Below are positions 1-11,394 of a DNA stretch of 11,394 nt, piece after piece. Position numbers and translations under genes: made by a program. Below the pieces are notes generated by a model. It was not told the DNA's origin and made no database searches. It saw nothing but the letters and a program-made list of their open reading frames with translations. Position 1 is the first letter of the stretch. Every line of letters begins with the position of its first letter. This DNA is from a virus (Duplodnaviria; Heunggongvirae; Uroviricota; Caudoviricetes), in the IMG/VR virus record IMGVR_UViG_2687453449_000005, positions 1-11,394 of that record, one strand, 5' to 3'.

Positions 1-90
1 TCACTCTGCCAGATGGCGCAATGCCATCTGGTATCACTTAAAGGTATTAAAAACAACTTTTTGTCTTTTTACCTTCCCGTTTCGCTCAAA
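1..90. other. Host chromosomal flank of the lambda attB site (B' arm side of attR)
   Basis: Reverse complement of 60-97 reads ...CAAATTAGTATAAAAAAGC preceded by GAGCGAAACGGGAAGGTAAAAAGACAAAAAG, which matches the E. coli attB/attR B' arm as I recall it (CTTGAGCGAAACGGGAAGG...). Recall-based; not verifiable here. Confidence 0.7.
9..31. repeat. Inverted repeat hairpin CCAGATGGC-GCAAT-GCCATCTGG in host flank
   Basis: Perfect 9-bp arms with a 5-nt loop seen directly. No adjacent T-run on either strand, so a terminator role is not supported; function unknown. Confidence 0.4.
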
Positions 91-105
91 TTAGTATAAA
101 AAAGC
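91..105. other. attR core: 15-bp lambda common core (TTAGTATAAAAAAGC = reverse complement of GCTTTTTTATACTAA)
   Basis: Exact 15-bp core string, flanked on one side by host-like sequence and on the other by lambda P-arm-like sequence. Confidence 0.85.
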
Positions 106-250
106 TGAACGAGAAACGTAAAATGATATAAATATCAATATATTAAATTAGATTTTGCATAAAAAACAGACTACAAAATACTGTAAAACACAACATATGC
201 AGTCACTATGAATCAACTACTTAGATGATATTAGTGACCTGTAACAGAGC
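106..250. promoter_or_regulatory. Lambda attP P arm (Int arm-type / IHF / Xis / Fis binding region), here part of attR
   Basis: TGAACGAGAAACGTAAAATGATATAAATATCAATATATTAAATTAGATTTTGCATAAAAAACAGACTAC...CAGTCACTATGAATCAACTACTTAGATG.TATTAGTGACCTGTAACAG matches the lambda P arm as recalled, in reverse-complement orientation. Confidence 0.8.
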
Positions 251-292
251 ATTAGCGCAAGGTGATTTTTTGTCCTCTTGCGCTAATTTTTT
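251..292 (+). terminator. sib / tI-like hairpin with T-run (lambda int retroregulation and terminator element)
   Basis: ATTAGCGCAAGG ... CCTCTTGCGCTAAT inverted repeat followed by TTTTTT, about 150-190 bp from the core on the P-arm side, where lambda sib/tI lies. Confidence 0.65.
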
Positions 293-783
293 GTCAACTC
301 ACTGGGTTAGTTGAATTTACAACCATGCTCAGTATCTCGATAAGCGCAGGGAGATGATGCAGTGGTGGGCGGACTGGCTTGATGAAAGTGTGCTGTAATC
401 CTCATATCCAACCTAAGAGATATGCACAATTTTGTGAATAAGATATTGAGAATTAGCAAAAGTTTTATTTTGCGTATCATCAATTCAGAATACAAAGTCA
501 CATGCTAATGTTCTGCATTGGTATCTTTTGCTTATCCATGTCTACATTATCGCCAAAATAATAGGTTTTGTCTATCAATTATTTGAATTACTTCCATGAA
601 ATTATAACGCACTTGTAATTTTTGATTATTTTTACCTCTCAAGTGTTTTGTTTCTTCTATCTCTTTGTATTTTTAGCGAAAGTATGCCATATTGCATTCT
701 AATATAACGTGGCGTTGTTTCTGTTTAATGATTTAAATAGTTCAACATAATATTTGCTAACAAATTATATCCAAGCAAATCAT

Positions 784-1929
784 ATGATATTATCATTACA
801 ATATATTAGAGGAATAGCATCATTACTTGTTGTTTTATTCCACTTCAGATTCTTGCTAAATGAGCACTACTCTCAGAAAGATTTGGGTGACCTATTATTT
901 GGGAATGGGCTGTCTGGAGTTGATATATTCTTCATATTAAGTGGATTTATCATCGTATACTCAACAAGAAAGAAGGAAGTTAATGATACTTTCTCATTCT
1001 CAATTAGAAGAATATTTAGAATATACCCATTACTAATCACATGCTGTTGCATGTATTACATAATAAACACTCAATTTCTAACCTATGCTACAGTTGAAAA
1101 CTTTAGAACCTTACTTATTTCCATCATTCCATTAAATATAAACTGGAATGAAGGCGCTCCATTCTTTGCCTATAATCTTTTGTACCCGGCCTGGACGATA
1201 ACATATGAAATTGGTTTCTATGTTTTTTTCGGGGTATCAATGTCTATTTCGCATAAATACAGAACAATTATCTGTTCTGTTTTTATAATCATGGTGGTCT
1301 CATTTACACAATACTATGTAAATGGAAATATATCATTTTCAGGTGATGTTAGTGCAGGGTTATTTACAGATAACTGGTTATTAGGATATACAAATGTTAT
1401 TACATCTCCAATGATGTATGAATTCGTTATTGGGATGTTTCTTTCTGAAATATTTACAAACATCAACGAAAGCAAAAGTATTAAAAGGATACTTTCAAAG
1501 TATTCGCTTCAAATACTATGGATTTCATGTGGTATATCCATAATATTATTCATTATCCAGCGACCTTATGGGCATGGATTGAATGGATTTGGGACTATGG
1601 CGATGATACTTATTGCATCATCATTAGTATATGAATACTGCAATATAACACCCAAAATAAAAATATTTAATTTCCTTGGTGAAATATCATATTCTTTATA
1701 TCTAATTCACGCCGTGATACTTGCTTTGTTCTTCTATTATAAGGCAGACCTTGCTGAAATTGGCATAACTGGTGGATTTTCTGTGTTTTTTTCCTTGGTT
1801 ATTATCTCAATAACTGCATCATATCCAATATATATTCTCATTGAAAAGCCAATGATAAATATAGGTAAACGTTTAATTGACAAGAGAAATAAGAGCATTA
1901 ACAAAAAAGAAACCGAAATAACAGCGTGA
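784..1929 (+). CDS. Acyltransferase family 3 (AT3) integral membrane O-acyltransferase, Oac/OafA-like; candidate surface-polysaccharide O-acetylase
   Basis: Track ORF 754..1929 starts at TTG; first ATG is 784 (MILSLQYIRGIASLLVVLFHF). AT3 hallmarks: N-terminal R...H in TM1 (YIRGIASLLVVLFH), GxxGVDIFFILSGF, and RRIFRIYP motif. Highly hydrophobic and AT-rich. Confidence 0.8.
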   Translation: MILSLQYIRGIASLLVVLFHFRFLLNEHYSQKDLGDLLFGNGLSGVDIFFILSGFIIVYSTRKKEVNDTFSFSIRRIFRIYPLLITCCCMYYIINTQFLTYATVENFRTLLISIIPLNINWNEGAPFFAYNLLYPAWTITYEIGFYVFFGVSMSISHKYRTIICSVFIIMVVSFTQYYVNGNISFSGDVSAGLFTDNWLLGYTNVITSPMMYEFVIGMFLSEIFTNINESKSIKRILSKYSLQILWISCGISIILFIIQRPYGHGLNGFGTMAMILIASSLVYEYCNITPKIKIFNFLGEISYSLYLIHAVILALFFYYKADLAEIGITGGFSVFFSLVIISITASYPIYILIEKPMINIGKRLIDKRNKSINKKETEITA

Positions 1930-1942
1930 TAATGACAAAGTT

Positions 1943-1964
1943 AGTGCCGGGATACCCCGGCACT
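1943..1964. terminator. Bidirectional intrinsic terminator candidate between convergent genes
   Basis: AGTGCCGGG-ATAC-CCCGGCACT perfect 9-bp stem, followed by ATTTAATCTATTT on + and a T-containing tract on -. Sits between the stop at 1929 and the - strand stop at 1967. Confidence 0.5.
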
Positions 1965-1966
1965 AT

Positions 1967-3304
1967 TTAATCTATTTCGTAAGTGACAGTGATTATCACT
2001 TCTGCATTATTACCCAAAACATTTTGATATATATTCATATTACCTGATAATGTAGTTGCTCCAGTAAGAGTTATATAACTACTATTTGCATCAACCCTTG
2101 GAAGTAAAGCGGTAACTGCTGTTGTTAAATTATTATAGTAGCCTGTACTTCCAACATATGCAGCTTTATTGCTTGATACATATGGTAACCCTCCAATTCT
2201 GAAACCATCTCCTGACCCAATTAAAGTTATACCAAGGTGACATGTTGCCGTTATGATATTGCCACTCCTGACATAATTTCCTTTCTGCTGATAATATGTG
2301 GCATTACCACCTACAGTCGGAATCCAAACTCCAGTTTCTATATCACCACATGACCAGTCTTCTGCTGTTGTTAGTTTTCCAGTAACAATAAATTTACTTC
2401 CACCACCAGAATTATAAGGAACAAAAATTGGATTTATTCTTGCATAAGTGTTACCGGTCTGCTCATTAAGATCATTTCTATCAATAAGAACTTGACCATT
2501 TTCGAAGTTTGAAATCTGGCAGTCTGTTACACTCCAGTCTCTTAACTTCACATCAGCATCCATGACACCAATAAGCTTACCAGCATTACCAATTTTTTCT
2601 TTATGCATATTTACATACACATTTCTTACCGTAACAGACTGAGGGAACAGATAATTAGCAGGATTAGTTTTATCACTTAAAACAGATATTACCCAAGGTC
2701 TGTATTGAGTACTTACTTCACAATAAAATCCATCAATAAGCGTTCCAGATGCCGCTGGCCCAAGTAGTATTCCACCTGTAGAGTGATGCGCACTACCTCC
2801 AATTACTCTCCCCTTAACGCAGTTAATATAGGCAAAATATCCTAAATCTTGATTGTCATAGGCTGACATAGCACAGTCTCTAACTGTTACTCGAGAATTT
2901 CCTCCGTCATAAGCTGAGCCATCAGTTTTCTTACCAACTATTGATATAAAGTTACCAATAGCAACTCGACTATAAAAAGTTTTTTTATAACACCCCTCAA
3001 TTAAAATATCCCAGTTTTCAAACTGAGCATATATATCATAAGAGCTGGCATTCCCATAATCTATGAAATCACAATATCTTATTTTCGGCGTATAAACGGC
3101 ACTTTTTATCTTTATACCACCTAATGCTCTCTCCCCACCTGTGAATCTAATGCCAGTAACGGTGTAATCGCCTTGATAGAAATTATCTGCGGTAGGATTA
3201 TTTTCGTCAGAATCATCACCCAATATAATAGCAAATTCACTCCCTGAATAATTAATTGTCGCCCCCTTATTTGAATATATAGTTACAGGTCTTATAAACT
3301 CCAA
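1967..3304 (-). CDS. Tailspike/tail-fibre-like receptor-binding protein, putative right-handed beta-helix glycanase domain; probably 5'-truncated remnant
   Basis: 445-aa ORF rich in G/N/S/T/Y/V with repeated short beta-strand-like segments (e.g. VTVRDCAMSAYDNQDLGYFAYINCVKGRVIGGSAHHSTGGILLG), typical of pectate-lyase-fold tailspikes. The ORF begins at TTG directly after an in-frame TGA; first in-frame ATG is far inside; no head-binding N-terminal domain. Confidence 0.5.
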   Translation of the reverse strand: MEFIRPVTIYSNKGATINYSGSEFAIILGDDSDENNPTADNFYQGDYTVTGIRFTGGERALGGIKIKSAVYTPKIRYCDFIDYGNASSYDIYAQFENWDILIEGCYKKTFYSRVAIGNFISIVGKKTDGSAYDGGNSRVTVRDCAMSAYDNQDLGYFAYINCVKGRVIGGSAHHSTGGILLGPAASGTLIDGFYCEVSTQYRPWVISVLSDKTNPANYLFPQSVTVRNVYVNMHKEKIGNAGKLIGVMDADVKLRDWSVTDCQISNFENGQVLIDRNDLNEQTGNTYARINPIFVPYNSGGGSKFIVTGKLTTAEDWSCGDIETGVWIPTVGGNATYYQQKGNYVRSGNIITATCHLGITLIGSGDGFRIGGLPYVSSNKAAYVGSTGYYNNLTTAVTALLPRVDANSSYITLTGATTLSGNMNIYQNVLGNNAEVIITVTYEID

Positions 3305-3623
3305 AGAATTACTTATTAGATACTCTCCATAAGGAAAAAAATCTCAACTGGTGGTGAGTACTTTGGTCTGGAGTTTACGTAATTCATAATATTGATTACA
3401 CCAACATCATAGATAATCGCCACCTTCTGGCGAGGAGCTCCTGATGCAATTAATCGCCAGGCCTACGCCCATTATTCAGGGGTAAATTTTGGACGGAGCC
3501 CCCAATTCCATCCTCAATTCTCCCTCGCACTGAGGAGTAGTAAGTGCAATTATTTAAAAAATCGCAAACAGAATATTATCATTTATTCTTGCATTCTGTT
3601 AATTAAAACCACACATAAAAACG

Positions 3624-3653
3624 TTGATACTTGATAAGTAAGTAGAGTATTAT
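3624..3653 (+). promoter_or_regulatory. Sigma70-like promoter candidate for the downstream acyltransferase
   Basis: TTGATA (3624-3629), 18-bp spacer, TATTAT (3648-3653), about 40 bp upstream of the ATG at 3697. AT-rich context, so false positives are likely. Confidence 0.3.
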
Positions 3654-3696
3654 TAATGGTTTTAATAACGAACCTTTTAATCATGAGAAGCCTCAA

Positions 3697-4722
3697 ATGA
3701 CTAGTACCAATAACATAACAAGAAAAAAAATGGATGGAGTAACAATCTTAAGATTTATAGCTGCTTTTTATGTGTTTATTTTTCACATTAACATGAGAGT
3801 CCCCGTTAATTTTGGAGAGCTTATTAATAAAACCATTAGCAATGGCGTCATTGGCATGAGTATTTTCTTCATGCTTTCTGGTTTTGTTTTGACTTATAAT
3901 TACTATGGTTCCTTGTCAAACAATTACTTCAGGAAGCGAATAGCAAGAATATTTCCAGCCTATTTATTTTGTGGGCTTTTAACCCTCCCATTTTTGTTAT
4001 CCAGCGATGCAAGCTTTTTAAAAATGATTGCAAGCATATTCTTGTTTGTTACTGGAATGCAATCATGGATTTATCAGACCTTCGATTTTTGGAATTTTAG
4101 CGGTACCTGGTCAATATCAGTGGAATTGTTTTTTTATGCCCTGTTTCCATTTTTGATAAAAAACATCAACAAAAACAATGTAATTTATGTTTTACTTTTT
4201 TCATATTTATCTTCAGCATTATTAATCCCATTATCTGATATAATTCAGGGACCTGTAGTTTGGTCCGTATATTACGCAACTCCAATATACAGGTTACCAG
4301 AATTTGTGGTGGGCGTCTGTATCGCAATACTTTTTTTAAATGGCTATCGTGTTAACCATTATACATGGCTATTAAGCATTTTATTATTTCTGTATGCTAC
4401 CACCCAGCAAAACAATAACTCCATGGGGGTGAACTATCTCACAATTCCTGCGATATCAATTATGTTATTGCACCTGGCAAAAATCAACATCAAAAACAAT
4501 ATTGCAAACAGAGCGATCATTTACTTTGGAGATATAAGTTATTCGTTTTATTTGATGCAATTACCTATATTATATTACCTGGATCATAATAAAAACTCAT
4601 TTATTCTTAACTATGGTCTTTTTAGCTGGCTTGTACTTTTTGTTATTAATACTGCAATGGCATCATTATCTTATCACTTTCTGGAGAAGAACGATAAAAT
4701 CAGAAAAATAATTACATCCTGA
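3697..4722 (+). CDS. Acyltransferase family 3 (AT3) integral membrane O-acyltransferase, second divergent copy
   Basis: ATG start; ILRFIAAFYVFIFH (R...H), GVIGMSIFFMLSGF, and RKRIARIFPAY motifs. Shares family motifs with the 784..1929 protein but is otherwise clearly divergent. Alternative start at the internal M (MDGVTIL...). Confidence 0.8.
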   Translation: MTSTNNITRKKMDGVTILRFIAAFYVFIFHINMRVPVNFGELINKTISNGVIGMSIFFMLSGFVLTYNYYGSLSNNYFRKRIARIFPAYLFCGLLTLPFLLSSDASFLKMIASIFLFVTGMQSWIYQTFDFWNFSGTWSISVELFFYALFPFLIKNINKNNVIYVLLFSYLSSALLIPLSDIIQGPVVWSVYYATPIYRLPEFVVGVCIAILFLNGYRVNHYTWLLSILLFLYATTQQNNNSMGVNYLTIPAISIMLLHLAKINIKNNIANRAIIYFGDISYSFYLMQLPILYYLDHNKNSFILNYGLFSWLVLFVINTAMASLSYHFLEKNDKIRKIITS

Positions 4723-4723
4723 T

Positions 4724-4749
4724 TTATTAGGGGGGTACCCCCCTAATAA
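4724..4749. terminator. 26-bp perfect palindrome TTATTAGGGGGGTACCCCCCTAATAA; bidirectional terminator candidate or protein-binding site
   Basis: Perfect 12-bp arms around a central TA, between the convergent stops at 4722 (+) and 4764 (-). No strong U-run, so terminator function is uncertain. Confidence 0.45.
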
Positions 4750-4763
4750 TACACCACATAATT

Positions 4764-5159
4764 TCAACGTATTATCTCTGGCCTTTCTGGCCAGGTTATT
4801 TCTGGAATTAAGGACAAATCCACTGACATTAAATTATTAACATATTCCTTCCATAACAAAAGATTGTTCTTGTTATTTTCACTTATAATACCGAGTAACA
4901 AATCTGACTGCCAGTTCATAATTAAACCATTAGCACTATCCAGCAGACACTGTCTTTCATTCTCTGCCTCACGAAGTAATTCATCATGTGTTTTTGGCGG
5001 CTGCGTAGGTGACGAAAGCTTTCCCTTATCATAGAACCAACCAATTCTTACATTATCGGATACAGGTATAACTAACGCATTAGTTGGTTGCCAGGCACTC
5101 TCACCATCCCATACCGCAATATTGGTAACAACACCATTTTCTATAACGGCATAGTTCAT
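4764..5159 (-). CDS. Tail fibre assembly protein (Tfa-like chaperone)
   Basis: Track ORF starts at TTG (5174); first ATG at 5157-5159 gives MNYAVIENGVVTNIAVWDG... (131 aa), with Tfa-like LGIIS motif and C-terminal W/P-rich tail. The ATG overlaps the upstream stop in a TGATG arrangement (translational coupling). Confidence 0.7.
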   Translation of the reverse strand: MNYAVIENGVVTNIAVWDGESAWQPTNALVIPVSDNVRIGWFYDKGKLSSPTQPPKTHDELLREAENERQCLLDSANGLIMNWQSDLLLGIISENNKNNLLLWKEYVNNLMSVDLSLIPEITWPERPEIIR

Positions 5160-5644
5160 CACGCATACTCCCAAATGATTGCAATACCAGCCATTCCGCT
5201 ACCTCCGGCACGCTGCTGCGTCGCTCCACCGTAGACACAGGCACCACCGCCTCCACCACCATGGCCATTAGCATTAATACCTTCGCCTACAATGGCTTGT
5301 GACCCAGCCCCCGCACCAAGGATTGAATCGCCGCCAGGCCCCCCCATCGCCAGACTGCCGGAATACCGAACGCCTGGTGAGCTATAACCGCTTCCAGACC
5401 CGATAATATTTGCACCTGTAAATCCCGGCTCAGTATATGCTCCATACGGACCAACAACCCCTGGAGCAGTTCCTTCAGCAAGAACATTCCCACCAAGGCC
5501 ACCTTTGGCAATTATGGTATTGCCGAAAGAGGTTGTTCCCCCGGGAGCACCAACCGACGCACTTGCACCAGTGCCACCATATCCGATTGTCACAGTAGTT
5601 ACGGTTGGATTATCCACGCGAGCTTTAACATACTCCCCGGACAT
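5159..5644 (-). CDS. Tail fibre protein, glycine-rich C-terminal (receptor-binding) domain; likely remnant of a longer side-tail-fibre gene
   Basis: 161 aa, extremely Gly/Ala/Ser/Thr-rich (GGxG repeats, GHGGGGGG), as in C-terminal domains of enterobacterial prophage side tail fibres; immediately followed by tfa. ATG start is preceded by a G-run with no properly spaced SD. Confidence 0.6.
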   Translation of the reverse strand: MSGEYVKARVDNPTVTTVTIGYGGTGASASVGAPGGTTSFGNTIIAKGGLGGNVLAEGTAPGVVGPYGAYTEPGFTGANIIGSGSGYSSPGVRYSGSLAMGGPGGDSILGAGAGSQAIVGEGINANGHGGGGGGACVYGGATQQRAGGSGMAGIAIIWEYA

Positions 5645-5666
5645 CCCCCCGCCACCACAAGCAGCA

Positions 5667-6428
5667 TTATTGGGATAGCTTCTCCACGCTGTAGGTACGC
5701 AAATGCGCTTTGTAGACCAGCTGCGCCGCGCCGACAGTAGCGCTGTCGAACGCGGTAAGACGATCCCAGATACGCTCTACAACCGACATTCCCCATTCGT
5801 TCTCGGTCATCTTCTGCTGAAATGGCAGCGTGACGCCATCAAAGCGAATCAGTCGACTGTGATGAATGCGCCAGGCAGGAATTCCCGTTGCTGTGGTCAC
5901 CACATCGTAAAACTCAGGTTTACCCAGGTCCGGCCCCATATCTTTAATGCGGCGGGTCAGTACCGGGTCAATCATCCAGCGGTCGAGCGGGAGAATCCCC
6001 TTAAACTTGCCCTTACCGATGGTTTCGGGTCGCAGCGGGGTCATTGGTGCCTGCCCCTCAATCATGATGAAACCCACCGCGCCGCCGTAGAGGCGCGACC
6101 ATTTCAGCACGTCATTCAGCGCATCCCAGATTTGCAACTCATCCAGTTGTGATTCGAGAATGCCACGATCTTTTGCATCAATTTCCGAAGTGATGCGAAT
6201 GCCTTTGCGGGTCATATCATCTGGGATAGCATCGACCGCTTCGCCGATGATCCAGGACGAACGATAGGACCATTCCACCAGCATGCGGTTACGACTGGTG
6301 AAATTAGCCCGGTAGGTGGATGCTGAGTGCTGGTTAGGTGTCTGCATCCCTACGCGGGCAATAAAATTCTCATAACCATCAGCTGTGGCCTGCGCAGTTC
6401 GCCGCAGGGCTTGTTTGTTTCGTGCCAT
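5667..6428 (-). pseudogene. Probable portal protein, N-terminal fragment (253 aa), truncated by deletion
   Basis: Start ATG overlaps the terminase large subunit stop (TGATG), the usual terL-portal coupling. At 253 aa it is far shorter than any portal and is followed after 22 bp by a tail-fibre C-terminal ORF. Portal assignment is by position and general character only. Confidence 0.45.
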
Positions 6429-8050
6429 CAGGCCTGTCTCCCTAGCAGCTCCCAGATGTTCAGGGCTGAATTCATTGGGGCATAGTTGATCATCACCGAG
6501 TCGGCAAGGTTTGGCGATCGGGTTCCATCAGGCTGTTTATCAATAACGATTTTTCCCACACCATTAATGGAATAGGTCGGCTGCGAAAGCTCGATGATGA
6601 GTTTATCTTTGAGTGCCATGCTACTGCTGATTGAGATGATTTCGTCCGGGTTGTAAGCCATACCTTCAACCACGGCGCGCCAGGTATTCTGAAAAAGTTT
6701 ACGTAACCGCCACCAGCTCTGGGCTTTGGCGTTAGCGAAGAAGTCCTTGTTCAGACGTGCGGCTTGCCCGTTGTCCCCGCGAACAGCTTCATCATCTGGA
6801 TCAAATACCGCGCCACTACCTCGAAACGGTGTGGCGAGTATTGACGGTCGACGCGCAACGTTACGCAGTTCGTTGATAGCGCGTGCATCGCCGCGAACGC
6901 CAGCGCCCAGCCCGTCCTCGTCAAAGCGAAACTCTTCGAGGTTGTCCTGTTCGCAAAAACCGAAAACCTTCTCGACGGACTGATAAATGTCACTGCCCAC
7001 ACCGGACCATTCCCGCACATTTTCCAGGAGGAAGCCATGACGGGTGGAAAATGCATTTTTGTCCCTGCCTTCGTCGGCGACATCCATCGCGCCAAGTCGT
7101 TTGCCTGTTGGCTGGATACCCAGTTTGATATGTGCATCAACGGCAGCCTGTACCCATTCGGATGGAATCAGGACGCCTTCCGCTGATGCGCTGTAGTTCA
7201 GATCAAGTTCCTGTGCCACCACCACCGGATTATCGATTTTCTCGCATTCCCTGCGATACCACTCTTCATCCTTGCGAGGATCATCCCGCCAGTGGAATGT
7301 GAATACCGGTATCTTCCCGCCATGACGCTTCTGAGCGAACGGGTTCGCCATGCCGTTAACTGAACTCAGGTCAATACGGCAACGCGTCGTTTGTGACAAC
7401 GCCGCATCAATCAGCAGAGGACGCTGAAGGAATGCAGCCTCATCAACCAGATAAAGCGTGGTACGGTCACCACGACCAATATTATCGCCAGCCTCGCCTT
7501 TGATAACGGCACCAGTTTCAGGAAACTCAACACGCATATATGGCGCGTGCTTCTTCTCGCTCCACGAACCGCGAAACTCTACAGGTAGTGTTTCCACGAA
7601 CTTGCGCGCCTTCCAGAACAATGCTTTCGGGTCACCGGTGCTGTCGACGTATTCCTCTTTACGGGAGCCGAAACCGATAACCATTTCTTTGTTGAAGAGA
7701 CAAAGCGAGCAGGCCAGTCCGATCGCGGTCCAACTGAGCCCCATTTCACGGGATTTTTCGGTAATACCATTCTCCCTATTGCCCCAGCGTTCCATAATCC
7801 AGTGGATCCACTCCTCCTGCTTAGGGAAGAGTAAAAACGGAATGGTCACCGGCAGGCCATAATCAATATTACGCGGGTCCGTTGTCATGCCCCAGTCGAT
7901 GATGAACTGAGCCGGGTTGGTTCGGTAAAACTGTTTTAGTGCTGGCAATATTTCAGGGTTCTGGCGAATGCGCTGTAAGCGTTCCATCCGCCATTCAAAA
8001 ACCATCTGGTAATCAGGATTTTTAAAATCGAAGGGGAATGGTAACGGCAT
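6428..8050 (-). CDS. Phage terminase large subunit (ATPase + nuclease)
   Basis: 540 aa; Walker-B-like [10 protein letters not shown]-terminal nuclease-domain motifs ([22 protein letters not shown]) of the kind seen in P22/Sf6-type terminases; ATG start 2 nt after the terS stop. Confidence 0.85.
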
Positions 8051-8052
8051 AC

Positions 8053-8559
8053 TTAGCCCATCATTTTTCTATACGCCTCTGCAGCCTGCTCCGGCGTTAA
8101 GTTGGTAATTTCTGTTCTGACTGGTCCTCCATCAGCGCCAGTCACTTCATTTTTGACGTTGTCTTTAAACGCCTGAACAGAAACATGACGCCCAAGCAAC
8201 TCAAGGTTTTTAACCTTATCAGGCCATTTGATTTTCTTCAGAAGTGCGGCGCTATCTGCGGATACCATCTCCATGACATCCATTCCTGATAGCGTTGTGC
8301 GCCATACCTTAGGCCAGTCTTTAATGGGTTTTAGATCACCGTTTTGCAGGAGAATGTCGAGCACATCCATCTGGTCGATTTCAATAAGGCGATTAAGTAC
8401 ATATTCTGCATTAATACCAACAAGATCATTGCGTTGCGCTTTCAGTTCAGCGATTCTGAATTGTATGTCAGGTTTTGACAGGTTTTCGGATGCGGTACGG
8501 TTAGCTGTCTTTGCGCTGTACCCCGCCCGAATATCGGCAATGAATAACAATCCTCGCAC
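8053..8559 (-). pseudogene. Terminase small subunit, N-terminally truncated at a recombination junction
   Basis: ...IRAGYSAKTANRTASENLSKPDI matches the conserved terS block, but the preceding residues do not resemble a terS N-terminus; the only start is GTG, an in-frame TAA lies 5 codons upstream, and no SD is present. Confidence 0.6.
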
Positions 8560-8581
8560 TCGCGGGGATTTCTTTTATCTG

Positions 8582-8607
8582 AACTCGCTACGGCGAGTTT
8601 TGTTTTA
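8582..8607 (+). terminator. Intrinsic terminator candidate (AACTCGC-TACG-GCGAGTT then TTGTTTT)
   Basis: 7-bp stem plus T-rich tract seen directly; lies in the junction/intergenic zone upstream of the 55-aa ORF. Confidence 0.3.
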
Positions 8608-8619
8608 TGGAGATGATAA

Positions 8620-8787
8620 ATGCACTTCCGAGTCACAGGTGAATGGAATGGAGAACCATTCAACAGAGTTATCGAAGCGGAGAACATCAACGACTGCTAC
8701 GACCACTGGATGATATGGGCGCAGATAGCACATGCAGACATAACCAATATTCGAATTGAAGAACTGAAAGAACACCAATCCGCCTGA
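8620..8787 (+). CDS. Small hypothetical protein (55 aa), lambda orf55-like, upstream of xis
   Basis: ATG at 8620 with GGAG 8 nt upstream; open frame to TGA at 8785-8787 (MHFRVTGEWNGEPFNRVIEAENINDCYDHWMIWAQIAHADITNIRIEELKEHQSA). Same position and size as the 55-codon ORF next to xis in lambda. Absent from the ORF track, presumably by length cutoff. Confidence 0.6.
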   Translation: MHFRVTGEWNGEPFNRVIEAENINDCYDHWMIWAQIAHADITNIRIEELKEHQSA

Positions 8788-8799
8788 TGGCGGTTTTTT
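8780..8799 (+). terminator. Small hairpin + T6 (CCGCC-TGAT-GGCGG-TTTTTT) directly after the 55-aa ORF
   Basis: 5-bp GC stem, 4-nt loop containing the ORF stop codon, and six T; seen directly. Not a named lambda terminator that I can recall. Confidence 0.3.
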
Positions 8800-8800
8800 C

Positions 8801-8840
8801 TTGCGTGTAATTGCGGAGACTTTGCGATGTACTTGACACT
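8801..8840 (+). promoter_or_regulatory. pI-type cII-dependent int promoter (TTGC-N6-TTGC box)
   Basis: TTGCGTGTAATTGC at 8801-8814 is a cII recognition repeat just upstream of and overlapping the xis start, as for lambda pI, whose transcript starts inside xis. Confidence 0.5.
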
Positions 8841-9045
8841 TCAGGAGTGGAACGCTCGCCAGCGACGCCCAAGAAGCCTTGAAACAGTTCGTCGATGGGT
8901 GCGCGAATGCAGGATATTCCCTCCTCCGGTTAAGGATGGAAGAGAATATCTGTTCCACGAATCAGCGGTAAAGGTTGACTTAAATCGACCAGTAACAGGT
9001 AGCCTTTTGAAGAGGATCAGAAATGGGAAGAAGGCGAAGTCATGA
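8827..9045 (+). CDS. xis: Excisionase Xis (lambda Xis, 72 aa)
   Basis: MYLTLQEWNARQRRPRSLETVRRWVRECRIFPPPVKDGREYLFHESAVKVDLNRPVTGSLLKRIRNGKKAKS matches lambda Xis as recalled; GGAG SD 9 nt upstream; 23-nt overlap with int as in lambda. Confidence 0.95.
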   Translation: MYLTLQEWNARQRRPRSLETVRRWVRECRIFPPPVKDGREYLFHESAVKVDLNRPVTGSLLKRIRNGKKAKS

Positions 9046-10093
9046 GCGCCGGGATTTACCCCCTAACCTTTATATAAGAAACAATGGATATTACTGCTAC
9101 AGGGACCCAAGGACGGGTAAAGAGTTTGGATTAGGCAGAGACAGGCGAATCGCAATCACTGAAGCCATACAGGCCAACATTGAGTTATTTTCAGGACACA
9201 AACACAAGCCTCTGACAGCGAGAATCAACAGTGATAATTCCGTTACGCTACATTCATGGCTTGATCGCTACGAAAAAATCCTGGCCAGCAGAGGAATCAA
9301 GCAGAAGACACTCATAAATTACATGAGCAAAATTAAAGCAATAAGGAGGGGGCTGCCTGATGCTCCACTTGAAGACATCACCACAAAAGAAATTGCGGCA
9401 ATGCTCAATGGATACATAGACGAGGGCAAGGCGGCGTCAGCCAAGTTAATCAGATCAACACTGAGCGATGCATTCCGAGAGGCAATAGCTGAAGGCCATA
9501 TAACAACAAACCCTGTCGCTGCCACTCGCGCAGCAAAATCAGAGGTAAGGAGATCAAGACTTACGGCTGACGAATACCTGAAAATTTATCAAGCAGCAGA
9601 ATCATCACCATGTTGGCTCAGACTTGCAATGGAACTGGCTGTTGTTACCGGGCAACGAGTTGGTGATTTATGCGAAATGAAGTGGTCTGATATCGTAGAT
9701 GGATATCTTTATGTCGAGCAAAGCAAAACAGGCGTAAAAATTGCCATCCCAACAACATTGCATGTTGATGCTCTCGGGATATCAATGAAGGAAACACTTG
9801 ATAAATGCAAAGAGATTCTTGGCGGAGAAACCATAATTGCATCTACTCGTCGTGAACCGCTTTCATCCGGCACAGTATCAAGGTATTTTATGCGCGCACG
9901 AAAAGCATCAGGTCTTTCCTTCGAAGGGGATCCGCCTACCTTTCACGAGTTGCGCAGTTTGTCTGCAAGACTCTATGAGAAGCAGATAAGCGATAAGTTT
10001 GCTCAACATCTTCTCGGGCATAAGTCGGACACCATGGCATCACAGTATCGTGATGACAGAGGCAGGGAGTGGGACAAAATTGAAATCAAATAA
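9023..10093 (+). CDS. int: Tyrosine integrase (lambda Int, 356 aa)
   Basis: MGRRRSHERRDLPPNLYIRNNGYYCYRDPRTGKEFGLGRDRRIAITEAIQ...SQYRDDRGREWDKIEIK matches lambda Int essentially throughout; catalytic residues at lambda numbering R212, K235, H308, R311, H333, Y342 are all present. Confidence 0.97.
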   Translation: MGRRRSHERRDLPPNLYIRNNGYYCYRDPRTGKEFGLGRDRRIAITEAIQANIELFSGHKHKPLTARINSDNSVTLHSWLDRYEKILASRGIKQKTLINYMSKIKAIRRGLPDAPLEDITTKEIAAMLNGYIDEGKAASAKLIRSTLSDAFREAIAEGHITTNPVAATRAAKSEVRRSRLTADEYLKIYQAAESSPCWLRLAMELAVVTGQRVGDLCEMKWSDIVDGYLYVEQSKTGVKIAIPTTLHVDALGISMKETLDKCKEILGGETIIASTRREPLSSGTVSRYFMRARKASGLSFEGDPPTFHELRSLSARLYEKQISDKFAQHLLGHKSDTMASQYRDDRGREWDKIEIK

Positions 10094-10172
10094 TGATTTT
10101 ATTTTGACTGATAGTGACCTGTTCGTTGCAACAAATTGATAAGCAATGCTTTTTTATAATGCCAACTTAGTA
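10094..10172. other. attL remnant: lambda P' arm plus first 6 bp of the core (TTAGTA), interrupted by IS10
   Basis: AATGATTTTATTTTGACTGATAGTGACCTGTTCGTTGCAACAAATTGATAAGCAATGCTTTTTTATAATGCCAAC + TTAGTA matches the lambda P' arm up to the core, then breaks into an IS10 end. Confidence 0.85.
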
Positions 10173-11394
10173 CTGAGAGATCCCCTCATAATTTCCCCAA
10201 AGCGTAACCATGTGTGAATAGATTTTGAGTAAGCAGGGTTGCAGCCACGAGTGAGTCTTCCCTTGTTATTGTGTAGCCAGAATGCCGCAAAACTTCCATG
10301 CCTAAGCGAACTGTTGAGAGTACGTTTCGATTTCTGACTGTGTTAGCCTGGAAGTGCTTGTCCCAACCTTGTTTCTGAGCATGAACGCCCGCAAGCCAAC
10401 ATGTTAGTTGAAGCATCAGGGCGATTAGCAGCATGATATCAAAACGCTCTGAGCTGCTCGTTCGGCTATGGCGTAGGCCTAGTCCGTAGGCAGGACTTTT
10501 CAAGTCTCGGAAGGTTTCTTCAATCTGCATTCGCTTCGAATAGATATTAACAAGTTGTTTGGGTGTTCGAATTTCAACAGGTAAGTTAGTTGCTAGAATC
10601 CATGGCTCCTTTGCCGACGCTGAGTAGATTTTAGGTGACGGGTGGTGACAATGAGTCCGTGTCGAGCGCTGATTTTTTCGGCCTTTAGAGCGAGATTTAT
10701 ACAATAGAATTTGGCATGAGATTGGATTGCTTTTAGTCAGCCTCTTATAGCCTAAAGTCTTTGAGTGACTAGATGACATATCATGTAAGTTGCTGATAGG
10801 TTTCCAGTTTTCCGCTCCTAGGTCTGCATATTGTACTTTTCCTCTTACTCGACTTAACCAGTACCAACCCAGCTTCTCAACGGATTTATACCATGGCACT
10901 TTAAAGCCAGCATCACTGACAATGAGCGGTGTGGTGTTACTCGGTAGAATGCTCGCAAGGTCGGCTAGAAATTGGTCATGAGCTTTCTTTGAACATTGCT
11001 CTGAAAGCGGGAACGCTTTCTCATAAAGAGTAACAGAACGACCGTGTAGTGCGACTGAAGCTCGCAATACCATAAGTCGTTTTTGCTCACGGATATCAGA
11101 CCAGTCAACAAGTACAATGGGCATCGTATTGCCCGAACAGATAAAGCTAGCATGCCAACGGTATACAGCGAGTCGCTCTTTGTGGAGGTGACGATTACCT
11201 AACAATCGGTCGATTCGTTTGATGTTATGTTTTGTTCTCGCTTTGGTTGGCAGGTTACGGCCAAGTTCGGTAAGAGTGAGAGTTTTACAGTCAAGTAATG
11301 CGTGGCAAGCCAACGTTAAGCTGTTGAGTCGTTTTAAGTGTAATTCGGGGCAGAATTGGTAAAGAGAGTCGTGTAAAATATCGAGTTCGCACAT
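10173..11394 (-). mobile_element. IS10 (IS4 family), partial in window: inside end at 10173, element continues about 107 bp beyond the window
   Basis: Terminal CTGAGAGATCCCCTCATAATTTCCCCAAAGCGTAACC matches the IS10 inside end as recalled. Transposase stop lies 14-16 bp inside this end and the 402-codon ORF starts at the last window base, fitting the 1329-bp IS10 layout. Confidence 0.93.
10186..11394 (-). CDS. IS10 transposase (DDE, IS4 family), complete 402 aa
   Basis: MCELDILHDSLYQFCPELHLKRLNSLTLACHALLDCKTLTLTELGRN... with DAGF and YSKRMQIEETFRDLK (YREK signature) motifs; matches Tn10/IS10 transposase as recalled. Confidence 0.95.
   Translation of the reverse strand: MCELDILHDSLYQFCPELHLKRLNSLTLACHALLDCKTLTLTELGRNLPTKARTKHNIKRIDRLLGNRHLHKERLAVYRWHASFICSGNTMPIVLVDWSDIREQKRLMVLRASVALHGRSVTLYEKAFPLSEQCSKKAHDQFLADLASILPSNTTPLIVSDAGFKVPWYKSVEKLGWYWLSRVRGKVQYADLGAENWKPISNLHDMSSSHSKTLGYKRLTKSNPISCQILLYKSRSKGRKNQRSTRTHCHHPSPKIYSASAKEPWILATNLPVEIRTPKQLVNIYSKRMQIEETFRDLKSPAYGLGLRHSRTSSSERFDIMLLIALMLQLTCWLAGVHAQKQGWDKHFQANTVRNRNVLSTVRLGMEVLRHSGYTITREDSLVAATLLTQNLFTHGYALGKL

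Follow-up and report, generated by a model that had tools for sequence, protein, structure and literature searches.

What does an 11,394-nucleotide stretch of viral DNA (hereafter the window; positions 1 to 11,394 of IMG/VR record IMGVR_UViG_2687453449_000005) represent, given that it combines an integration module resembling that of phage lambda with terminase, portal and tail-fibre genes of another kind? The locus raises the further questions of how most of a phage genome was lost from it and whether what is left has been kept for the benefit of the host. A first-pass annotation, made from the sequence alone, had read positions 91–10172 as a mosaic prophage remnant, and alignments together with family scans confirmed both its inventory of genes and its coordinates. 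The region is in all likelihood the defective lambda-B prophage of the Escherichia coli B/ST93 lineage, here in the more decayed copy of strain RS76, an assessment that includes the account of its origin and decay given below. The element itself is already known and described, and it is an ordinary decayed prophage.

Identity and locus of the element

Searching for an exact match to the chimeric TerS ORF of the window led to a single contig, CP013048.1, the genome of the avian-pathogenic E. coli strain RS76, and the whole window was contained in it as an exact substring. When the window was compared by megablast with 5,426 complete E. coli genomes, REL606, BL21 and other B strains matched positions 1–10172 at 100% identity, in two pieces. 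In the alignment to the REL606 locus, window 1–8533 corresponded to locus positions 4001–12533 and window 8529–10172 to locus positions 14543–16186, both at 100% identity. In the RefSeq annotation of REL606 the segment was flanked by ybhB, which lies beside bioA, bioB and bioF, and by ybhC, and these flanking genes were common to the REL606 and RS76 copies. The attB site of K-12 MG1655 is empty (ybhC-ybhB, beside bioA) and reads ...cgctcaaGttagtataaaaaagcaggcttcaac...; because this empty site equals window 1–105 joined to the REL606 right flank, with window position 90 as the sole difference, the element is placed exactly in the lambda attB, between gal and bio. The ybhB/ybhC neighbourhood beside bio and the empty K-12 site thus bore out the earlier assignment of the flanks to the gal-bio attB region. 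Position 90 itself, on the host (B') side beside the attR core, falls inside a core-type Int-binding site, and is an A in the window and in REL606, a G in K-12 attB and a C in lambda attP.

A 12.1-kb prophage, lambda-B, occupies attB in BL21 and REL606 according to Jeong et al. (2015; PMC4395058), who refer to Studier et al. (2009) in reporting it as common to the B lineage. In BL21(DE3), DE3 stands in place of the lambda-B element, as PMC4395058 implies. The core-to-core distance computed for REL606 was 12,076 bp. The element of the window and lambda-B of REL606/BL21 agreed in sequence, genes and locus (attB, ybhB/ybhC), with 100% nucleotide identity over the 10,172 shared bases, and the RS76 copy differed by two private lesions, being without 2,014 bp and having an IS10 in its attL core. 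The hosts also differ, the RS76 copy residing in a wild O7:ST93 avian-pathogenic isolate and the REL606/BL21 copy in a laboratory B strain.

Strain RS76 (CP013048), of serotype O7:HNT and ST93, came from a broiler in Brazil (PMC4732331). Its sequence type is given as ST73 in the abstract of PMC4732331 and as ST93 in the text; ST93 fits, since the flanks of the RS76 element are 100% identical to E. coli B. As this identity to REL606 extended over at least 6 kb, RS76 is, judged by its sequence, a wild close relative of E. coli B. A near-100% identical remnant was also present in many isolates from outside the laboratory, with chicken, turkey, pig, humans and seawater as sources.

Homology to lambda was restricted to two segments. 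Window 87–296 matched lambda 27534–27742 at 97.6% (4 mismatches and 1 gap), and window 8544–10172 matched lambda 27733–29361 at 98.7%, the latter containing orf55, xis, int and the P' arm; with these identities, the int, xis and att segments are lambda-like, as had been proposed. The 15-bp core occurred at both prophage ends, once at 91–105, where the first-pass annotation had placed the attR core, and again as the full attL core GCTTTTTTATACTAA beyond IS10, outside the window. The P arm (210 bp, 97.6%) and the P' arm were homologous to lambda attP, and all 92 aligned bases of window 10081–10172 (int 3' end, P' arm and partial core) were identical to lambda. The tyrosine recombinase was accompanied by an Xis excisionase and differed from lambda Int by three substitutions (H164P, A245T and I248V), none at the catalytic residues, which we take to be R212, K235, H308, R311, H333 and Y342. 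The hairpin at 244–294 (inverted repeat I8), followed by a T-run and kept on the attR side away from int, as in any lambda prophage, is presumably lambda tI/sib.

The element thus shared with phage lambda (NC_001416) the attP core, P and P' arms, int, xis and orf55, at 97.6–98.7%, as well as the integration site and the prophage gene order and orientation, so that the earlier statement that gene order and strands follow the lambda prophage map was upheld. Everything outside att, int, xis and orf55 was different, with the lambda b-region replaced by an acyltransferase/tailspike cargo. The G+C content was 45.1% in the int module, 51.7% in the terminase/portal block and 33.6% in window 297–4763, the AT-rich cargo.

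A complete relative and the shared deletions

The comparison with the same locus in other genomes, which the first-pass annotation had proposed as a way to a fuller ancestor, yielded a complete prophage at attB of NRZ14408 (NZ_CP158426), of ~42.3 kb (about 42,349 bp core to core). From ybhB and the cargo, its order was tfa, a 369-aa tail fibre, baseplate, tape measure, tail, head, a 488-aa portal, TerL and TerS, followed by lysis, Q, nin, P, O, cII, cro, cI, cIII, kil, DUF551, DUF4752, xis, int and ybhC. The att sites, int, xis, TerS, TerL, Tfa, acyltransferases and cargo were the same in both elements, at 99.7–100% identity except for one 75-bp stretch at 98.7%. The protein accessions of TerS, TerL (WP_001130801.1), Tfa (WP_001104982.1), acyltransferase 1 (WP_000603805.1), Xis and Int (WP_000533643.1) were identical in NRZ14408 and REL606. 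In contrast to the remnant, NRZ14408 still has a full portal gene and the genes for head, tail, baseplate and lysis, as well as Q, nin, O/P and cII/cro/cI; it has another small ORF instead of orf55, and its lysis-proximal module is unlike that of REL606.

Alignment to this prophage located the first shared deletion to the base, window 1–5677 corresponding to NRZ14408 positions 14706–20381 and window 5676–8533 to positions 37045–39902, the latter at 100%. The deletion links tail-fibre codon ~198 to portal codon ~250, and the portal frame stops 2 codons past the junction. In NRZ14408 both genes are complete (369 and 488 aa), and the tail-fibre alignment ends at composite position 20381. A second junction, present in REL606, joins an Rz1-like gene to a DUF551 fragment, and the early, regulatory and replication genes and most lysis genes have been lost there. 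At least two large internal deletions had been predicted from the window, in agreement with these comparisons to NRZ14408 and REL606.

The combination of lambda and non-lambda modules is, on this comparison, a property of the parent phage and not a product of decay; it predates the decay because the intact NRZ14408 relative has the same combination. For the same reason, an origin of the mosaic by fusion of two remnants was rejected.

Matches to Pfam and PHROG families and the difference in G+C content (33.6% against 51.7%) supported the earlier identification of a portal fragment, a fibre C-terminus, tfa and an AT-rich cargo. BLASTP of the window proteins gave no credible similarity to lambda A (E 0.31) or B (E 0.81), and Nu1 matched only over a 54-residue, 28%-identical stretch between the middle of TerS and the Nu1 N-terminus (E 0.007), which is not credible either. 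The terminase and portal therefore differ from lambda Nu1, A and B. The first-pass annotation was right to call the terminase genes non-lambda, while its view of them as a pair needs correction, for TerS is without 23 residues and its start and the pair is not intact.

The virion module instead resembled that of vB_EcoM-606R2 and SEN34, lambdoid phages with a DUF1073-type portal, to which window 5676–8235 was 99% and 87% identical, respectively, and which have the same order of TerS-TerL-portal ... tail fibre-tfa-invertase. Both of these are complete phage genomes, and vB_EcoM-606R2 is not at attB (its record has tadA-side host genes) and is without the acyltransferase cargo. Unlike in lambda, the virion module here is as in phages named as myoviruses; no paper was found on vB_EcoM-606R2, and for its late module myovirus particles are indicated by the phage name only. 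RefSeq labels the portal fragment 'anti-CBASS Acb1 family', a label that was rejected, given that the only matches were to PF06381, TIGR01555 (HI1409) and PHROG 146 and that PADLOC gave none; it looks like a naming artefact.

Table 1. Features of the window, with positions, strands and the evidence for each.
Feature	Positions	Strand	Evidence
Host flank, ybhB-attB intergenic DNA, B' side of attB	1..90		100% identical to REL606 downstream of ybhB
attR core, 15-bp lambda common core GCTTTTTTATACTAA	91..105	-	Single exact match in window; 0.07 expected by chance
Lambda P arm of attR, including hairpin 244–294	106..296		Homology to lambda
IntS-type integrase, 3' end fragment, 84 bp	315..398	+	RefSeq pseudo-CDS in REL606
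Acyltransferase 1, O-acetyltransferase family, intact	784..1929	+	Pfam Acyl_transf_3 at 1e-30; PHROG 3333 at 3e-72
Bidirectional terminator-like hairpin between acyltransferase 1 and tailspike fragment	1942..1965	both strands	10-bp stem, 7 G-C pairs; consensus match only
Sf6/P22-type tailspike, C-terminal two-thirds, without head-binding domain	1967..3410	-	Alignment to 2018-05-5CC tailspike
Pin-type DNA invertase, C-terminal HTH pseudogene	3398..3508	-	86–87% identity to pinE and a phage DNA invertase
Acyltransferase 2, O-acetyltransferase family, intact	3697..4722	+	Pfam Acyl_transf_3 at 4e-27; PHROG 3333
Tfa, tail fibre assembly protein, intact ORF	4764..5159	-	Pfam Caudo_TAP at 3e-23
Tail fibre gene, C-terminal ~172 codons, glycine-rich; N-terminal 197 codons deleted	5159..5677	-	PHROG 863, Pfam Gly_rich_2
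Junction of deletion 1, 16,665 bp of head/tail/baseplate genes, 2-bp overlap	5676..5677		NRZ14408 alignment
Portal gene, N-terminal ~250 of 488 codons	5667..6428	-	Pfam Phage_portal_3 (PF06381) 6–207 of 357 at 1e-55; PHROG 146; TIGR01555
TerL, terminase large subunit, intact, 540 aa	6428..8050	-	PHROG 2
TerS, terminase small subunit, without first 23 codons and start	8053..8533	-	Pfam Terminase_2 21–139 of 141
Junction of 2,014-bp deletion, microhomology GAATA	8529..8533		REL606 alignment
orf55 (lambdap35 homologue)	8620..8787	+	2 substitutions vs lambda; PHROG 676 at 4e-39
xis, excisionase, intact	8827..9045	+	Pfam Exc at 4e-41; 71/72 identical to lambda Xis (G59S)
int, lambda-type tyrosine integrase, intact, 356 aa	9023..10093	+	353/356 identical to lambda Int
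P' arm of attL and int-proximal copy of IS10 target duplication (AACTTAGTA, 10164–10172)	10094..10172		Lambda identity
IS10, inside end at 10173, splits attL, not prophage	10173..11394	-	402-aa IS4-family transposase, NF033591 at 1e-120

Lesions private to RS76 and the proposed course of decay

The 2,014 bp missing from RS76 lie between two GAATA pentamers of REL606. Lost with them were the first 23 TerS codons (TerS begins MALTDKQEMFCREYLIDLNATQA...), the 182-aa ORF, the Rz/Rz1-like genes, the DUF551 fragment, DUF4752 and almost all of an ASCH gene. The TerS ORF of the window aligned to REL606 TerS from residue 23 and was identical from residue 24, its earliest residues coming from unrelated DNA. 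The deletion also made a chimeric 168-aa ORF, the first residues of which come from around the 3' end of the ASCH gene that was lost.

The second lesion is the IS10. The window ends at the start codon of its transposase, ~107 bp before the outside end; in CP013048 the full element of 1,329 bp (7059–8387 of the source-locus sequence) lies between int and ybhC. With this length, a DDE transposase of ~402 aa and a 9-bp target duplication, TACTAAGTT, at both ends, it is an IS10 of the IS4 family, and its terminal sequences match what we take to be the IS10 outside and inside ends. The attL core breaks off after TTAGTA at 10167–10172 and is followed by CTGAGAGATCCCC...; the broken core had been seen correctly in the first-pass annotation, which did not recognize that the break is caused by the IS10 insertion and that the full core lies beyond it. 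On the ybhC side of IS10 stands the full core GCTTTTTTATACTAAGTT, and on the int side the P' arm. The duplicated target within the lambda core is a fair match to NGCTNAGCN, presumably the Tn10 hot-spot consensus. Excision of lambda depends on an attL complex in which the P' arm sites and the H' bend lie beside the core. With the 1,329-bp IS10 parting the full core from the P' arm sites, excision of the RS76 element is very probably abolished, also when Int and Xis are provided.

The RS76 genome is a short-read/mate-pair assembly that was ordered against BL21(DE3), with gaps closed by PCR and Sanger sequencing (PMC4732331). Were the 2,014-bp deletion and the IS10 in attL artefacts of this assembly, the strain would truly have the 12.1-kb element. 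Neither junction was found in the 5,426 complete E. coli genomes by megablast of junction windows, and both were absent from genome and metagenome contig collections in exact-pattern scans, as expected of artefacts, and the reference used for ordering, BL21(DE3), is itself without the element. However, a full 1,329-bp IS10 with a perfect 9-bp duplication and correct ends bears the mark of real transposition, the deletion joins sites 2 kb apart through a 5-bp repeat, which a de Bruijn assembler would not do, and the reported gap closure by PCR and Sanger sequencing (PMC4732331) speaks for the finished sequence. An artefact is accordingly very improbable, and both lesions are treated here as real.

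The comparisons suggest the following history. A mosaic lambdoid phage of ~42 kb, as represented by the intact relative, would have been integrated by a lambda-type Int into attB between ybhC and ybhB. It would have consisted of lambda-type int/xis/attP, a lambdoid early region, an AT-rich accessory block beside attP, and head and contractile-tail-type genes like those of vB_EcoM-606R2 and SEN34. Most of this genome was then lost by illegitimate recombination at very short homologies. A 16,665-bp deletion from mid-portal to mid-tail-fibre is evident from the alignments, and a second, seen in REL606 and estimated at roughly 13–15 kb, took the early, regulatory and replication genes and most lysis genes. 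In RS76, the 2,014-bp GAATA deletion removed the older second junction together with the TerS start, and IS10 then entered the attL core, so that 1.3 kb now separate the core from the P' arm.

Several points weigh against this account. About 1.36 kb in REL606, from TerS to the DUF551 fragment (12606–13961 of the REL606 locus sequence; a 182-aa ORF and Rz/Rz1-like genes), are unmatched in NRZ14408, so that both the size and the endpoints of the early-region deletion are estimates and the remnant descends directly from a phage with another lysis-proximal module. NRZ14408 is therefore, by its sequence, a close relative and not the literal ancestor. The two private lesions rest on one short-read/mate-pair assembly, and the loss of excision in RS76 is something that we infer from the arrangement of attL. 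Finally, a promoter scan was uninformative, with 28 sites against 29.5 expected, at chance level, and what can be said of expression comes from the sequence.

Retained genes, cargo and the question of benefit

Window 1–11394 was fully accounted for by alignment to REL606, NRZ14408, lambda or IS10, and within it neither these alignments nor the family scans revealed a repressor, Q, replication, lysis, capsid or tail-tube/sheath gene. The earlier claim that every essential phage function is missing therefore stands, and with repressor/cro, N or Q, replication, lysis, capsid and tail lacking, the element is not a functional temperate lambdoid phage; it would be unable to copy or package its DNA, to lyse the host or to build particles. 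The ORFs that survive undamaged are those of int, xis, orf55, TerL, Tfa and both acyltransferases. Of the promoters and activators of the phage that normally drive most of them (pL, pR', cII and Q), none is left, and only the two acyltransferases, as moron-like accessory genes, are plausible candidates for expression. No RNA family was found with Rfam at gathering thresholds, and no defence-system family was detected by PADLOC in the 10 main ORFs, which gives no indication of a defence island.

The size of 10–12 kb and the presence of int/xis and terS/terL loosely resemble phage-inducible chromosomal islands (PICIs), and the element could be imagined as a satellite of ~10–12 kb with its own int, xis and terminase that relies on a helper lambdoid phage for mobilisation and packaging. 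In the B-lineage copy the lambda-type att sites are intact, and the absence of the element from BL21(DE3), with DE3 at the site, is compatible with excision by helper Int/Xis. Against this, simple deletions turned a 42-kb prophage into the element and left the portal and tail-fibre genes truncated where they now meet, and family scans of the ORFs found no repressor, primase/replication module, capsid-size or packaging-redirection gene; in the window, moreover, TerS is beheaded and attL split. A satellite origin is thus exceedingly improbable and was rejected, the junctions cutting the portal and fibre genes of a full prophage and the features of a PICI being absent.

The AT-rich cargo occurred in 50 complete genomes at ≥80% coverage, and in NRZ14408 at 99.8% identity. 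Window 313–3410 was 98.7% identical to, and collinear with, a prophage at argW of strain 2018-05-5CC, which is Sf6/P22-like and in which the same DNA goes from a complete intS via an acyltransferase to a 649-aa 'phage head-binding domain' tailspike. The int 3' end, acyltransferase and convergent tailspike are the same over this range, whereas here there is only a 3.1-kb fragment, with the integrase cut to 84 bp and the tailspike without residues 1 to ~170. This tailspike–O-acetyltransferase–int corner is presumably that of genes 14-15-16 in Shigella phage Sf6. The tailspike ORF at 1967–3304 encodes 445 aa from a TTG and had no family match, yet 441 of its 445 residues were identical to residues 205–649 of the 2018-05-5CC protein. 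The N-terminus of that full tailspike matches the head-binding domains of Sf6 gene 14 and of the P22 tailspike (PDB). Since the ORF corresponds to residues 205–649 and the head-binding domain is N-terminal, the fragment is the receptor-binding part without the particle-attachment domain. A stop codon and a frame break (near 3345) lie upstream of the ORF. Within the receptor-binding region, positions 2384–3040 matched, at 66% DNA identity, the tailspike of St11Ph5, a G7C-like phage that infects E. coli 4s, and this match suggests an O-antigen-directed domain shared across unrelated phage types.

The second part of the cargo, window 3397–4763 with the invertase remnant and acyltransferase 2, had counterparts at 98.7–99.5% identity in prophages of IAI39 and strain 8178, there too beside tfa. 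The invertase translation reads ...RPKFTPE*WA*AWRLIASGAPRQKVAIIYDVGV and then passes into the tailspike INIMNYV..., the two being joined at a shared DVGV, with two internal stops. This invertase/tailspike fusion (3340–3510) is an older recombination scar that is also present in the intact NRZ14408 prophage. Around the invertase fragment, a repeat search gave neither hix-like nor other meaningful repeats; all that it returned was the lambda tI hairpin and, at 4710–4763, a terminator palindrome. Because the whole cargo is present in the complete NRZ14408 prophage, it was, by this comparison, assembled in a phage before decay began.

It had also been suggested that the retained genes are those most often kept in domesticated prophages, and the remnant could accordingly be one in which int/xis, terminase, fibre/tfa and cargo were kept by selection for a benefit to the host. 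The ~100% identical remnants in the many non-laboratory isolates mentioned above, the intact state of TerL and of the two acyltransferase ORFs, and the 19 synonymous against 3 non-synonymous codon differences between the tailspike fragment and its intact homologue could be taken in this sense. However, those carriers probably share the remnant by clonal descent, and the excess of synonymous changes can go back to a time when the sequence belonged to functional phages. The shared parts are 99.8–100% identical to the complete prophage, so that the remnant is very young, too young for retention to mean selection. The survivors are exactly what two deletions spared, the cut TerS and split attL of RS76 represent continued decay, and PADLOC detected no defence-system family. 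Domestication is therefore improbable and no evidence of it was found; the suggestion made from the window is unsupported, and a recent prophage that is still decaying remains the preferred reading.

There is also a slim chance that the AT-rich block works as a surface-modification module in smooth O7:ST93 strains such as RS76. If so, the two O-acetyltransferases, perhaps with the free tailspike fragment, would alter the O antigen and the susceptibility of the cell to O-antigen-specific phages. Such a benefit would explain why the cargo end survived every deletion, and IS10 in attL would 'ground' the module in the chromosome.

As a decayed lambda-B prophage, the element is a textbook case of prophage decay. 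It explains the occupied attB in B strains and is relevant to lambda lysogeny and to DE3 constructions in these strains. Since wild O7:ST93 isolates carry the remnant, it predates laboratory domestication. With an intact relative at the same site, it provides a base-exact record of how a 42-kb phage was reduced to 10 kb via microhomology deletions and an IS insertion.

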